Shown here: one piece after another, positions 50,138 to 52,726 of the stretch
Layout of the letters: the number at the start of each line of letters is the position of its first letter
Numbering within the stretch: position 1 is the first letter of the stretch
Source of the DNA: Candidatus Gastranaerophilales bacterium
Lineage (GTDB): Bacteria > Cyanobacteriota > Vampirovibrionia > Gastranaerophilales > JAILCC01
DNA length: 64,000 nucleotides
Reading direction: 5' to 3'
NCBI GenBank assembly: GCA_045598245.1
Contig: JAZLLQ010000020.1
Span: 13,772 to 77,771 of the forward strand
Notes under the pieces: generated by a model
What the model was told of the DNA's origin: nothing
Database searches by the model: none
The model's input: the letters and a program-made list of their open reading frames with translations, nothing else
Position numbers and translations under genes: made by a program

Positions 50138-52726
50138 TTATTCTTCGATTTCTTTTTCTTCGTCTTCTTTCAATTCAACGATTTCATCAAAGATTTCATC
50201 AGGAATATTAGCATTATTTTCAACTTTATCTTTAATTGCTTTGAAGTTTACTTCGCCTTTCAGAGCTACTACACCGTGTTTGTTCAAAGTTAATATCGCA
50301 TCTTTAAGGTTTGTAGAGGCTGTTTCTTTCTTCTCTGTTGAGTTTGCGGTAACTGCTTCATCTGCTGATTTTTTTGCATTCCAGATGTCCGCATATTCTC
50401 TGGTTTCTCCGTTAACTACAAAGGTTGCACCTTCCTGCCTCATTATATCGTTATTCTTTCCGTCATAATTTTGAGTTAATTGAGTTTCTGTTGTTTCCGC
50501 AAGATTTATTTCAGTAATACCTAAGTCTGCCAATGATTTTGCTTCACCGCCGTATCCGTTTGTCATTGTTAAGCCATATTTTTTACTTAGCAAATCAATA
50601 TCTTTTTCGTCTAATTTGTTATCATTTTCTCCAATCAGACCTTCTTTTTTTGCAAGAGCTTTTAATGCTTCAAAGCCGTCTTTGTACCCGTCAGCTACTC
50701 CGTCACCATCAATATCTGTGTTATCTCCGAATAATTCCGAACCGTCTTCACCTGCAATACCATCATGGTCTTTATCGAATGCTAAAACCCATTCTGCTGA
50801 ATTGTTTACGGTATCTAATTCTCCGTCACCGTCAATATCAAATGATACTGTTTCATCGGTTGTATTTATTCCGTTACCGTCAACGTCAAATGAAAGAGGT
50901 GAGCAGGTTTCGTAGCAACAAGATTTTTCTTCGGCTTCTCTTGCGTCTGTCCAACACTCATTTACACCGCTGAGTTTGTATGCGGGTCTGCCACTGCCGT
51001 CAGTAGCTTCAGAATATTTGCTTTTGGGAATTCTTCCGCTGCCTTTTGGTACTATGTCGTAACTTTCTTTACTGCAGCCGAGGTAGTATCTTGCTACACT
51101 TTGGTAAGCACCGTTTTTAGGCGGGTCCATTATGTAAATATGCCAATTATTGTCTGCCCCTTGCATTATTAAACAGTTTTCGAGATTTACACCTTTTTCT
51201 TTTGCAAAATTTTTCTCTTTTTCTGATACAAGTGCGAGAACTTCTGCCGCACTCAGCCCTTTTCCTTCTTTCTTTTCGGCTTCATGTGCTGCTTCTAATT
51301 CGGTAATTTTATCGGATATTGTAGTTTTATCTTTTTGTTTTACGCTCAAATCGGCATTTAAAGTTTCAATTTTTTTATTGTTTTTGTCTATATTTTCAAC
51401 TGTAGTTGCTAAATTGGCAGTTATTTCAGCAAGTGATGCTGTTGCGGCATCAAGAGCAGCTTGCGCATTTTGTACAACATTTGATTGTGTCATAATATTT
51501 TTCAAGGTAGCTTGTGCTTGTTCAGAGAGACTTTCTGATTTCCAATTAAGCATATTTAACTTTGTGAATGTTGGGAACCCTACATTATCCATTTGTTGTG
51601 CGAAGTATGTTTCAAAGTTATCACCATCTTTTTCGGGGTTATAATTTTTAATGATATCTTTTACCGCAGCATCCATTTCTAATTTGAATTCTTCAGATTC
51701 ACGTTCTTGTTCTGCTAAAATTTCTTTGTTTAAATGTTCAATTTCTTCTTGATAGTTATCATATTCTTTTGTATAAACTTCAAGTTGTTCTTCTTCTTTT
51801 TTGAGGTTTTCCGTTGCTGTTTCAACTTCTTCCTGTGCTTTTGTTTGTGCTTTTTCAAGTTCGGCTTTTTGTTCCAATAATTTGTCATTTGCATCTTGAA
51901 TTTCTTCAATTTGTGCGCTCAATGCTTCAATTTCTTTATTTATTGCATCAAGTTTTGTTTTTAATTCTTCAAGTGTTGAAGTGGATATATCCGTACCGTC
52001 ACTTAATTTGACAGGTGCTGCTGCCGCTGTCGGTGTTGTACCTTCAGTTGCGGTCGGAGTTGTTGCTCCTTCGGTTGCGGCAGGCGTTGTTGTTCCCTCG
52101 TTTGCTGTTGGCGTTGCAGCTCCTGATGAACCTTTTTCTGCCTTAGAAATTAAGGTTTCTGCCATTGTGTCTGCATTAGAAGTATACGGTATTTGTTCAA
52201 CAGGTTTTCCGTCAACAAATTTTATGATAAACGGTAAAGTTGAACCTGATATTTTGAAATCACCCATTATTTGTTTTCTTACTGCACTTTGAGTATCACA
52301 GTCTAAAGAAACAACATTTGCATGTTTTGAAATTTCATCAAATTTACTTTGAACATTTTTTTCGTACGTTCTGCATCTTCCGCAGCGACCGATAGCACCT
52401 ATAACAACATAAACAGTACCTTTACTGTTAAGAATTTCGTCTTTAACATTTGATGAATCTATTTCCGTTAATCCGTATTTGTTTTTACCTGCACCGGTTT
52501 TGGATGCTTTTGAAGAGCCTGTTTTTTTGACTGATGTATCAATCATTACTTCCGAATCGTCATCAGCTGCTGAAAGAAGATTTGAAATTGCATTTTTTAT
52601 TTCTTCAGTAGCTTCGGCTTTATCTTTGTCGTTTATTACACCGTCATTGTTTACATCTAATTCCTCAAATGATTGGGATATTCCGATGTTTCTTAAGTTT
52701 TCAAAAGCTATTTTATTAATTTCCAT
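50138..52726 (-). CDS. Multidomain protein: EF-hand, thioredoxin-like (CGRC), Thr/Ala/Pro linker, coiled coil, FrpC self-processing-module-like C-terminus
   Basis: DVNNDGVINDKD; CGRC and TLPFIIKF.DGK; SPLSFDVDGNG...SELFGDNT...GFEALKAL...KSLADLGI. Confidence 0.85.
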   Translation of the reverse strand: MEINKIAFENLRNIGISQSFEELDVNNDGVINDKDKAEATEEIKNAISNLLSAADDDSEVMIDTSVKKTGSSKASKTGAGKNKYGLTEIDSSNVKDEILNSKGTVYVVIGAIGRCGRCRTYEKNVQSKFDEISKHANVVSLDCDTQSAVRKQIMGDFKISGSTLPFIIKFVDGKPVEQIPYTSNADTMAETLISKAEKGSSGAATPTANEGTTTPAATEGATTPTATEGTTPTAAAAPVKLSDGTDISTSTLEELKTKLDAINKEIEALSAQIEEIQDANDKLLEQKAELEKAQTKAQEEVETATENLKKEEEQLEVYTKEYDNYQEEIEHLNKEILAEQERESEEFKLEMDAAVKDIIKNYNPEKDGDNFETYFAQQMDNVGFPTFTKLNMLNWKSESLSEQAQATLKNIMTQSNVVQNAQAALDAATASLAEITANLATTVENIDKNNKKIETLNADLSVKQKDKTTISDKITELEAAHEAEKKEGKGLSAAEVLALVSEKEKNFAKEKGVNLENCLIMQGADNNWHIYIMDPPKNGAYQSVARYYLGCSKESYDIVPKGSGRIPKSKYSEATDGSGRPAYKLSGVNECWTDAREAEEKSCCYETCSPLSFDVDGNGINTTDETVSFDIDGDGELDTVNNSAEWVLAFDKDHDGIAGEDGSELFGDNTDIDGDGVADGYKDGFEALKALAKKEGLIGENDNKLDEKDIDLLSKKYGLTMTNGYGGEAKSLADLGITEINLAETTETQLTQNYDGKNNDIMRQEGATFVVNGETREYADIWNAKKSADEAVTANSTEKKETASTNLKDAILTLNKHGVVALKGEVNFKAIKDKVENNANIPDEIFDEIVELKEDEEKEIEE

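Follow-up and report, generated by a model that had tools for sequence, protein, structure and literature searches.

A Ser-Pro Homologue of the Self-Processing Module of FrpC Close to the C-Terminus of a Leaderless Non-RTX Protein in a Flagellated Gastranaerophilales-Type Genome

Results

Gene Layout and Upstream Region

The analyzed window is a stretch of 64,000 nucleotides from a Candidatus Gastranaerophilales bacterium (contig JAZLLQ010000020.1). At positions 50138-52726 it contains an apparently monocistronic ORF on the minus strand encoding a protein of 862 aa, designated here P0001; all features described below lie on the same strand. Directly 3' of the ORF stop we found an intrinsic-terminator-like hairpin followed by a T-rich tail (50108-50131). 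Upstream of the ORF lies a ribosome-binding region, GGAACGGAG (52734-52742), within a 5' UTR that is kept among the paralogues. It should be mentioned that the source lineage is a gut-type, flagellated, non-photosynthetic relative of cyanobacteria.

A predicted sigma28 (FliA)-type promoter, TAAAGATA followed by CCGATAT (TAAAG-N15-CCGATA; 52765-52791), was revealed further upstream. This TAAAGATA...ACCGATAT arrangement is located 39 nt ahead of the ATG and fits the TAAA-N15-GCCGATAA type. All paralogues of the gene have the pattern TAAAGTTT-N11/12-(G/A)CCGATA at 33-44 nt from their start codons, and a motif of the TAAAG-N15-CCGATA type also precedes the flagellin genes. In addition, a FliA/WhiG gene was detected in the genome with jackhmmer and NCBIfam (TIGR02479, 237.6 bits versus a cut-off of 189.6). 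The sigma28 control suggested in the initial annotation thus appears well founded at the level of sequence, since the promoter type is common to paralogues and flagellins and the FliA gene is present. A second element, TTTGTAAATAAAT (TGTAAAT-type; 52815-52827), lies about 25-40 nt upstream of the -35 region. Its TGTAAA(T/C)TT form occupies the same place at all nine of the nine family 5' ends in the genome and is also found upstream of metagenomic sister genes whose products have Asp-Pro at the junction described below.

In total at least eight paralogues of the P0001 gene carry sigma28-type promoters. They are located on other contigs, none being present within the window, and no conserved partner or chaperone gene adjoins the four complete paralogue loci.

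Domain Organization of P0001

The protein starts with a leaderless module of 60 aa (MEINK...FEELDVNNDGVINDKD; 52547-52726) that is conserved in the genome family and includes an EF-hand/dockerin-like loop at aa 24-35 (52622-52657). This module recurs with about 60% identity in at least nine genes of the genome, and it is present in the product of the gene C1:29858, in which the SPM-like domain is absent. The closest metagenomic homologues, Asp-Pro sisters included, have it as well. Neither a Sec signal peptide nor an NCBIfam match was found for this module, which we consider a candidate export or docking signal.

The next region, aa 88-195 (52142-52465), is thioredoxin-like, with weak matches to the Pfam Thioredoxin family (E = 0.0036; 17.7 bits, under the cut-off of 23.5) and to PDI-like and thioredoxin structures in the PDB (E 0.04-0.3). 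It contains a C115-G-R-C118 motif (52373-52384), which is CGFC in the paralogue C41. A Thr/Pro/Ala-rich linker (aa 202-238; 52013-52123) leads to a long coiled-coil region (aa ~245-495; 51242-51994), whose weak matches are solely of the coiled-coil type (SMC, crescentin, tropomyosin).

A globular alpha/beta domain (aa 500-604; 50915-51229) precedes the SPM-like module. It was modeled by AlphaFold with pLDDT of about 85-95 in a two-domain model and was found in 153 of 245 related proteins, with no matches in Pfam or the PDB. Its columns D525, H529, Y531 and G564 are invariant, while A521, R546, Y548 and G562 are conserved in at least 90%. The domain is joined by the junction C603-C604-Y605-E606-T607-C608-S609|P610 (50897-50920) to the SPM-like module, which is predicted to bind Ca2+ (aa 610-785; 50372-50899); position 50375, where the initial annotation had set one end of the module, falls within codon 784. 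The protein ends with an acidic/lysine-rich tail (aa 786-862; 50141-50371) of low pLDDT in the AlphaFold model (model residues 302-328). The tail is missing in many homologues, in which a median of six residues follows the module.

Not a single GGxGxD nonapeptide was found in P0001, so the host protein indeed lacks RTX repeats, as initially noticed. A dedicated type I secretion system (T1SS) was not detected in the genome, which is 97% complete: the best HlyB and HlyD matches (324 bits versus a cut-off of 726 and 53.5 bits versus 209, respectively) were, like the others, generic ABC and adaptor proteins below the cut-off.

Homology of Residues 610-785 to the FrpC Module

Residues 610-785 almost certainly form a genuine representative of the superfamily of FrpC/ApxIVA self-processing modules (SPM), located near the C-terminus of a leaderless non-RTX protein from a family with at least eight paralogues under sigma28-type promoters in a flagellated Gastranaerophilales-type genome. 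A single-sequence phmmer search of the PDB matched the FrpC SPM (6sjw, E = 0.0018) with P610 aligned to the residue at which the cleaved module begins. A profile of 14 sequences starting at P610 matched 6sjw with E = 1.3e-18 and 6sjx with E = 2.4e-17, the alignment to 6sjw running from end to end (1-173 versus 1-167). The AlphaFold2 model of aa 610-785 (pLDDT 92.3, pTM 0.88) had 6sjw as its sole significant Foldseek match in the PDB (E = 3.7e-7, probability 1.00, TM 0.67/0.66). The FrpC-type homology claimed in the initial annotation is therefore borne out by both the profile and the Foldseek comparison with the FrpC structure that had been proposed as its check. This structural match was obtained with the domain-only model; the 365-residue two-domain model (pTM 0.58, low confidence at residues 603-606) returned nothing significant, and 6sjw was not listed.

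Scans of the whole protein with Pfam-A and NCBIfam yielded no model for the module, and the same was true of scans of this type for eight distant relatives; Pfam PF26745 is present in the precomputed annotation of five homologues. The superfamily is very large, with 13,103 representative clusters at E ≤ 1e-3.

The module contains four loops, D614-x-D-x-N-G, D630-x-D-x-D-G, D651-x-D-x-D-G...E664 and D671-x-D-x-D-G, together with the motif E664-L-F-G-D668-N-T and the C-terminal strand Y778-A-D780-I-W. All strings from which homology was originally proposed (CSPLSFDVDGNGI, FDIDGDG, VLAFDKDHDGI, GSELFGDNT, GFEALKAL, KSLADLGITEINL, RQEG and YADIW) were found in the ORF.

Comparison with the FrpC Module

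The closest known system is the SPM of FrpC (2020, PMC7078468). Both modules comprise about 175 aa and have one and the same, otherwise unique fold. It consists of two beta-sheets and a helix-turn-helix, was described as novel in FrpC and is matched by the P0001 model. They share the start Pro-Leu-x-[LF]-Asp-x-[DN]-G-[DN]-G, EF-hand-like Ca2+ loops and a passenger directly N-terminal to the module. FrpC P415, the first residue of the module, corresponds to P610. The residues round the scissile bond and the fifth Ca2+ site of FrpC (L475, G477, D478, D579) have counterparts in P0001: the ELFG(D/N)NT motif (FrpC L475-D478) is kept as L665-F-G667-D668, and D579, which coordinates the transient fifth Ca2+ at the scissile bond, is D780. 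The EF-hand-like sites D419-G424 (with D456) and D462-E474 are recognizable as D614-G619 and D651-E664. In contrast, the canonical EF-hand loops of the helix-loop-helix part, D499-D511 and D521-E532, are not recognizable in P0001, which has two other DxDGDG loops at 630-635 and 671-676; pilin-type paralogues of the same genome retain the FrpC-like loops. W451 of FrpC is not conserved in the P0001 branch either (W in 42 of 224).

The main difference concerns the residue ahead of the proline, which is the anhydride-forming nucleophile D414 in FrpC and Ser in P0001. Substitution D414A in the FrpC SPM abolishes both cleavage and ligation (PMC7846742). P0001 further differs in having a conserved YxTxS segment with a Cys-enriched cap upstream of the junction, in lacking RTX repeats after the module and T1SS genes above the cut-off, and in being a leaderless protein with a sigma28-type promoter and a module near the extreme C-terminus.

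Structure and Conservation of the Ser-Pro Junction

The S609 codon (TCA; 50900-50902) stands in the place of FrpC Asp414, so that Y-x-T-x-S609|P610 replaces D|P. The initial claim that Ser takes the place of the reactive Asp is upheld by the translation and by the alignment of homologues. Among 238 related modules the -1 residue is Ser in 214, Asp in 14, Thr in nine and Cys in one. Thus S, T or C was found in 224 of 238, and A, G, N and E were never seen; this alphabet holds across at least 15 changes on the tree. Ser at -1 is encoded by both codon families, TCN and AGT. Pro at +1 (238/238), G667 and D780 are invariant, and at 668 both the Ser-Pro and the Asp-Pro group have either D or N. We found no residue inside the module that separates Ser/Thr/Cys-Pro from Asp-Pro modules, only phylogenetic noise, and therefore no new candidate general base.

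The CC-x3-C pattern before Ser-Pro stressed in the initial annotation is present in P0001 (C603, C604, C608), but these are not conserved positions: among 120 homologues Cys occurs at -2 in 39% and at -6 in 45%. The truly conserved junction motif is Y(-5)-x-T(-3)-x-S(-1)-P(+1), with Y in 115, T in 112 and S in 115 of the 120; YxTxS precedes 144 of 213 Ser-Pro junctions. Cysteines are nevertheless enriched before Ser-Pro (1.83 per 25 aa versus 0.18 in whole proteins and 0.07 before Asp-Pro).

The 14 Asp-Pro junctions come after a coiled coil or flexible PT/G-rich linkers. Natural Asp-Pro sister proteins of P0001 exist, with an N-terminal module, coiled coil, tail and promoter type as in P0001, and one of their genes adjoins fliI, the gene for the flagellar T3SS ATPase. 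In P0133 and P0134 the invariant residues of the pre-SPM domain are kept and a flexible linker joins this domain to Asp-Pro. The invariant His of the domain is a less likely activator of Ser609, because these two Asp-Pro proteins retain the domain with its invariant residues.

The layout of the module is strict: in 231 proteins it is always preceded by a passenger of at least 85 aa and usually followed by nothing (median 6 aa). In the literature searched, the SPM is described solely as an Asp-Pro module within RTX proteins. As judged from sequences, the superfamily seems to be mostly Ser-Pro, non-RTX and C-terminal, in proteins with several kinds of export signals, with Asp-Pro in the minority. 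Ser-Pro appears to be the majority state of the superfamily and not a peculiarity of P0001.

Discussion

Folding and Export

By analogy with FrpC, the module is likely to be unfolded at cytosolic Ca2+ and to fold on binding Ca2+ outside the cell. Such Ca2+-triggered folding would suit export in an unfolded state. Since P0001 has no Sec signal peptide and the genome no T1SS genes above the cut-off, the flagellar type III apparatus is most plausibly the export route. In Campylobacter jejuni the sigma28-dependent proteins Fed, Cia, FlaC and FspA are non-flagellar but are co-expressed with the flagellum and exported through it. The P0001 family resembles them in the sigma28-type promoter, the absence of a Sec signal peptide, the flagellated host and the location of one sister gene by fliI; it is unrelated to them in sequence, and its own export is putative.

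Does the Ser-Pro Junction Cut?

The clip-and-link reaction via an aspartic anhydride is impossible once Ser609 replaces Asp414. Because the cutting Asp is here a strictly conserved Ser, the Ser-Pro SPM is either inactive in cutting or works by a so far undescribed chemistry. The two alternatives offered in the initial annotation, altered autoprocessing or a non-cleaving Ca2+ switch with another export route, are the ones that survive, in narrowed form.

In the single most likely reading, to which we assign a probability of roughly 45%, the Ser-Pro junction stays intact and serves as a permanent Ca2+-dependent lock. Turns of the Asx/ST type before Pro are formed by S, T and D. The Ser hydroxyl would preserve such a strained turn ahead of the invariant Pro, and the module, which the Cys-enriched YxTxS segment would couple to the domain before it, would permanently act as an anchoring end-piece or as a folding lock dependent on Ca2+; the Asp-Pro relatives would represent repeated gains of cleavage. 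This agrees with the loss of the Asp route, evident from Ser at -1 together with the effect of D414A in FrpC, and with the lack of a new candidate general base inside Ser-Pro modules. The conserved Cys-enriched segment before Ser-Pro, as opposed to the linkers before Asp-Pro, fits a permanent joint rather than a leaving group. Ser-Pro is also the majority state (214/238) and therefore probably ancestral in this branch.

Several observations do not fit well with a lock. Position -1 admits solely potential nucleophiles (S, D, T, C) through at least 15 changes on the tree, Ser is retained through both codon families, and Asn, the classic Asx-Pro turn former, is not seen. Pro+1, G667 and D780 are as invariant in Ser-Pro as in Asp-Pro modules, and the layout, with a passenger before and little after, is what one would expect of a leaving group. 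The Asp-Pro sisters resemble P0001 from the N-terminal module through the coiled coil to the tail, and in promoter type as well, which argues for one common function. Finally, low predicted confidence at residues 603-606 and the pTM of 0.58 leave a rigid coupling of the two domains unsupported by the AlphaFold model.

The runner-up, possible although we would put it below even odds, is hydroxyl-based self-processing. Here Ca2+-induced folding would strain the junction, as it does in FrpC, and the hydroxyl of Ser609 (Thr or Cys in relatives) would be the nucleophile. By one route, an N-to-O acyl shift at the C608-S609 bond would give an ester that is then hydrolysed or handed to an amine or hydroxyl acceptor; by the other, the hydroxyl would attack the carbonyl of the same residue, in the twisted Ser-Pro amide, giving a C-terminal beta-lactone. 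Both routes would free the N-terminal 608-609 residues from the module, possibly in an activated and ligatable form. Much of what speaks against a lock speaks for this chemistry: the S/T/C/D-only alphabet over at least 15 independent changes, both Ser codon families in use, the junction machinery kept (P610, G667 and D780 invariant, 668 D/N), the strict position in 231 proteins with almost nothing after the module, and the similarly regulated Asp-Pro sisters in the same protein family. None of the intermediates A, G and N was found, although a change from S to D takes at least two nucleotide substitutions.

There is also precedent in strain-driven and Ser/Thr/Cys-nucleophile systems. It is established that SEA domains undergo strain-driven N-to-O shifts with no dedicated base and that GAIN, Nup98, inteins and pyruvoyl enzymes use Ser, Thr or Cys as the nucleophile. 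P0001 shares with these systems (SEA G|SVVV, GAIN/GPS HL|T, Nup98 HF|S, inteins, pyruvoyl enzymes) the Ser/Thr/Cys alphabet at the candidate nucleophile, a possible drive by folding energy and a putative activated ester transferable to another nucleophile. However, their folds are unrelated to the SPM, and their nucleophile directly follows the cut, whereas the candidate in P0001, where cutting is putative, precedes an invariant Pro; the P0001 family also has no conserved His or Gly ahead of Ser. A side-chain nucleophile before Pro in a strained turn is likewise found in NPTH of FlhB/YscU (FlhB being a flagellar export-gate protein) and in GDPH of mucins/FCGBP, whose self-cleavage also yields a reactive anhydride. 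These folds are unrelated too, and Asn and Asp make five-membered rings, which Ser cannot.

Hydroxyl chemistry has no experimental precedent in an Asp-less SPM, the D414A variant being dead (PMC7846742), and Ser-Pro modules have no extra conserved base. Pro is invariant although an N-to-O shift has no need of Pro+1, beta-lactone formation in proteins has no known precedent, and the structured Cys-enriched upstream segment resembles a permanent joint.

We consider it unlikely that the Ser-Pro junction is recognized or modified in trans, with the folded module as recognition domain, for example by a dedicated protease or sortase-like enzyme or through O-glycosylation or phosphorylation of the Ser/Thr residues of YxTxS-P. 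In an extended segment the conserved hydroxyl residues at -1, -3 and -5 would share one face, and C-terminal sorting domains removed by partner enzymes are known (T9SS CTD, sortase signals). On the other hand, the four complete paralogue loci have no conserved neighbor gene, Ser-Pro persists in many subfamilies without YxT, and the repeated replacement of Ser by Asp is hard to square with a glycosylation or kinase site. As for a chance pile-up of EF-hand-like DxDGDG loops without SPM homology, the profile does weakly touch calmodulin EF-hands (E about 0.002-0.01) and 6sjw is absent from the Foldseek list for the 365-residue model, but this explanation is refuted by the end-to-end profile match (E = 1.3e-18), which spans non-loop parts (ELFGDNT, GF.AL, L..LGI, the C-terminal strand and its Asp), and by the domain-only model matching 6sjw alone (TM 0.67).

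Significance of Ser-Pro Modules

The SPM is among the very few natural devices that turn folding into a reactive protein acyl group, and it is the basis of tag-free purification and of the NeissLock ligation technology. If Ser-Pro modules cut, they would offer a new autoprocessing chemistry and new inducible ligation tools. It may be proposed, tentatively, that Ser/Thr/Cys-Pro SPMs form a second class of modules for Ca2+-triggered self-cleavage and ligation, based on a hydroxyl or thiol, proceeding via an ester or beta-lactone and far commoner than the RTX-borne Asp-Pro form. In the organism studied here these modules would arm a family of sigma28-driven, probably flagellar-T3SS-exported coiled-coil proteins and giant type IV pilin-like proteins, whose reactive C-terminus would attach covalently to a surface or target. 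Should Ser-Pro modules fail to cut, the fold would originally have been a Ca2+-dependent lock, and clip-and-link would have arisen several times via a Ser-to-Asp change. Either outcome would be informative, and the natural Ser-Pro and Asp-Pro sisters in one family allow a clean comparison. The P0001 family itself points to flagellum-co-regulated and possibly flagellum-exported proteins in a little-studied gut lineage.

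Structure of the gene and its product

The 862-aa protein P0001 is encoded by an ORF at 50138-52726 on the minus strand, as are all features of this gene listed here. A sigma28-type promoter (TAAAGATA...ACCGATAT, 52765-52791) lies 39 nt before the ATG, a conserved TGTAAAT-type element is located at 52815-52827, and a terminator-like hairpin is found at 50108-50131. The protein opens with a leaderless N-terminal module carrying one EF-hand/dockerin-like loop (aa 1-60, 52547-52726). Next come a region of weak thioredoxin similarity that contains CGRC (aa 88-195, 52142-52465; Pfam E=0.0036, below cut-off), a Thr/Pro-rich linker, a coiled coil of about 250 aa and a globular domain of roughly 105 aa (aa 500-604, 50915-51229), here called the pre-SPM domain. 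[quoted passage not shown] The end reported in the initial annotation, 50375, falls within codon 784. All sequence strings quoted there were found in the P0001 translation, and its statement that the protein is not an RTX protein holds (zero GGxGxD nonapeptides).

The pre-SPM domain was modelled confidently (pLDDT about 85-95) and occurs in 153 of 245 related proteins; D525, H529, Y531 and G564 are invariant, while R546, Y548 and G562 are nearly so. Since it had no match in Pfam, PDB sequences or Foldseek, it is an unnamed domain. The thioredoxin-like region, part of a leaderless and probably exported protein, has CGFC in the paralogue on contig C41 and is missing from other paralogues; its substrate might be the Cys-rich cap at the junction.

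Relationship to the FrpC module

Sequence comparison and modelling together show that the P0001 module is an SPM homologue. A single-sequence search with P0001 retrieved the FrpC SPM structure 6sjw at E=0.0018, with P610 aligned to the first residue of the cleaved FrpC module, and a 14-sequence profile starting at the Pro matched 6sjw (E=1.3e-18) and the second entry, 6sjx (E=2.4e-17), end to end. The structural kinship proposed earlier was borne out by the AlphaFold2 model of the module (pLDDT 92.3, pTM 0.88), whose sole significant Foldseek match in the PDB was 6sjw (E=3.7e-7, prob 1.00, TM 0.67/0.66). Such a unique match is what homology predicts, because the FrpC SPM fold was described as novel by Kuban et al. 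(PMC7078468). The 365-residue two-domain model missed the SPM match, which we count as a limitation of the search and not against homology. That the resemblance arose by chance has a negligible probability.

The segment E664-L-F-G667-D668-N-T corresponds to E474-L-F-G477-D478-N-T of FrpC, a motif lining the scissile bond, and D780 corresponds to D579, which also lines it. In FrpC, D478, D579 and the D414 carbonyl hold a transient fifth Ca2+, which twists the Asp-Pro amide. The two canonical helix-loop-helix EF-hand loops of FrpC were not recognisable in P0001, and two other DxDGDG loops are present instead. All 238 modules compared share P610, D614, G667, G684, G766 and D780, and no alignment column inside the module separates the Ser-Pro from the Asp-Pro forms.

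In the literature found, the SPM is an Asp-Pro device defining a subclass of RTX proteins, with cleavage demonstrated for FrpC, FrpA, ApxIVA and two further RTX homologues. The P0001 module shares homology, fold, the Pro at +1 and the pocket residues with the clip-and-link SPM of FrpC, but has neither the Asp nucleophile nor the RTX/T1SS context. Thus, we class it as a member of the SPM superfamily and not as a FrpC-type clip-and-link module. The anhydride reaction can be ruled out at S609-P610, since the carboxylate is missing at -1 and the D414A variant of FrpC is inactive (PMC7846742).

Variation at the junction

In 120 homologues the -1 residue is Ser (115), Asp (3) or Thr (2). Tyr at -5 (115/120) and Thr at -3 (112/120) are nearly as conserved, and position -2 is variable (C 47, A 33, S 21). 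The larger set of 238 modules, which takes in the best matches of an exhaustive profile search, contained Ser (214), Asp (14), Thr (9) and Cys (1) at -1 and no other residue. On the module tree (a quick FastTree on 176 columns) at least 15 changes at -1 are required, eight involving Asp and six Thr. A change from Ser to Asp takes at least two nucleotide changes via Ala, Gly or Asn, none of which was seen at -1 in the 238 modules. Within the genome, some copies use TCA/TCT for Ser(-1) and others AGT. The junction [Y/S]-x-T-x-S-PLILDTNKDG recurs in a distant subfamily of related genomes.

The 25 residues ahead of Ser-Pro contain about ten times as much Cys as whole proteins do (1.83 vs 0.18 per 25 aa), and Cys is practically absent before Asp-Pro junctions (0.07 per 25 aa). 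The CC-x3-C noted initially before S609 is therefore one case of a general feature, but its positions are loose, not fixed.

Distribution of SPM-like modules

The genome encodes 11 SPM-like domains, all Ser-Pro. Five of them form the C-terminal end of giant Cys-rich proteins (5-8% Cys; C33:10086(+), C40:27122(-), C28:1504(+), C51:2495(+), C19:74277(-)), whose ORFs of 713-1960 aa are in some cases interrupted by contig ends. These modules are more FrpC-like, yet still Ser-Pro (e.g., ...YYRESS-PLVLDLKGDG, ending ...MIDVFF). At the N-terminus of two of the five is a prepilin-type GFxxxE methylation domain (TIGR02532; 21.5 and 21.2 bits against a cut-off of 16.3); judged by sequence, these proteins resemble type IV pilins and may bear a 'warhead' at the C-terminus.

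SPM-like domains were revealed in 17 of 31 related genomes. A module profile searched against 1.84 billion representatives matched 13,103 clusters at E<=1e-3, of which 4,870 also pass E<=1e-10. New members among the best 150 of the 13,103 comprised 98 Ser-Pro, 11 Asp-Pro, seven Thr-Pro and one Cys-Pro; almost none of them had RTX repeats. Among the N-termini are Sec-like signal peptides and Flp-pilin-like leaders, besides others with no leader at all. The metagenomic proteins P0183, P0191, P0193, P0194, P0197 and P0202 combine Flp-pilin-like N-termini (...KGQ..EY.LI...) with a C-terminal Ser/Thr-Pro SPM-like module. In 231 complete proteins the module is always preceded by a passenger, 85 aa or longer (median 393), and followed by a median of six residues; longer tails are E/K/D-rich.

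Asp-Pro sister proteins also exist. P0043, P0047 and P0049 match P0001 in the N-terminal module, the coiled coil, the tail and the SPM, the last at about 68-70% identity. No pre-SPM domain is present in these three, whose coiled coil leads directly into Asp-Pro. In P0133 and P0134 this domain and its invariant residues are retained, and a PT/S-rich linker connects it to Asp-Pro.

Paralogues, promoters and genome context

By source name, the best matches of the family come from Gastranaerophilales, non-photosynthetic relatives of cyanobacteria. The window occupies C20:13772-77771 of a 2.06-Mb, 97%-complete assembly. This assembly contains at least eight paralogues of P0001, several broken at contig ends, all combining a TAAAGTTT-N11/12-(G/A)CCGATA promoter with an N-terminus of the form MEINK...LDVxxDG. 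Motifs of this type also precede flagellin and hook-associated-type genes, and a FliA/WhiG sigma factor gene is present. In its strict form, TAAAGTTT-N11/12-GCCGATA, the motif defines an extensive sigma28 regulon across the genome. Flagellins both minimal (283 aa) and giant (one of 1066 aa in the window, one of 874 aa at another site) belong to it, together with several large proteins that have neither a leader nor an assigned function; the window ORFs at 14641-17256, 34463-37663 and 27156-28007 (all minus strand) are among its members. All family promoters, those of sister genes in metagenomic loci L021 and L024 included, have a TGTAAA(T/C)TT element some tens of nt ahead of the sigma28 -35, in many cases in two copies; it could serve as an UP element or bind a regulator.

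Residues 1-60 (MEINK...FEELDVNNDGVI..DK) are common, at about 60% identity, to at least nine sigma28-driven genes, including C1:29858 (+), genes on C46, C49, C44 and C38, and 52547-52726 (-) in the window. This part is a separable module, because the 563-aa C1:29858 protein shares only it and has no SPM-like domain. The module, which matched no family, may be a signal for export or docking. No conserved neighbour gene accompanies the four complete paralogues; neighbours of the P0001 gene in the window encode a possibly fragmentary 92-aa product with a GH108 lysozyme N-terminal domain (48795-49073, minus), a 656-aa ankyrin-repeat protein (46761-48731, plus) and a resolvase-N/HDOD/HD fusion (55258-56481, plus).

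Ahead of the P0049 gene are a TAAAG-N-GCCGATA promoter and the TGTAAA element; in three metagenomes the gene adjoins, divergently, a flagellar T3SS ATPase (FliI-type) gene (in L021, ATPase 4419-5771, minus; sister gene 6001-7842, plus). A patatin-like phospholipase gene comes after the sister gene in these metagenomes (e.g., L021). An FHIPEP (FlhA-type) gene is located 4.5 kb away from the P0043 gene, whose version of the promoter is degenerate.

Possible function of the Ser-Pro module

Our leading reading, given a probability of roughly 0.45 from sequence features, is that the Ser-Pro module would be a non-cleaving lock: the Ser hydroxyl would retain an Asx/ST-type turn ahead of Pro, and the junction would be a permanent joint. 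Several points favour this: the YxTxS segment is structured and Cys-enriched, in contrast to the loose linkers preceding Asp-Pro; the module shows no new base; and Ser-Pro is the majority state, probably the ancestral one. Self-processing through the hydroxyl, by an N-to-O shift at the -2/-1 bond or attack on a twisted Ser-Pro amide, is a serious possibility to which we give somewhat less than an even chance. It would fit a -1 alphabet of only nucleophile-bearing side chains, the missing mutational intermediates and Asn, the use of both Ser codon families, the invariance of Pro and D780, the strict 'leaving-group' geometry (passenger ahead, little behind) and a function on a par with that of the Asp-Pro sisters. 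A trans-acting enzyme at the junction is improbable.

As regards export, a flagellar type III route is predicted and favoured, if tentatively, because of sigma28 control, the absence of a signal peptide, the conserved N-terminal module and the sister gene beside fliI; no HlyB or HlyD homologue reached the cut-off in the 97%-complete genome. The FrpC SPM binds Ca2+ with a Kd of about 150 uM and is unfolded at cytosolic Ca2+. By analogy, we infer that the P0001 module would fold only upon binding Ca2+ outside the cell, and such folding would suit an export route needing unfolded substrates.
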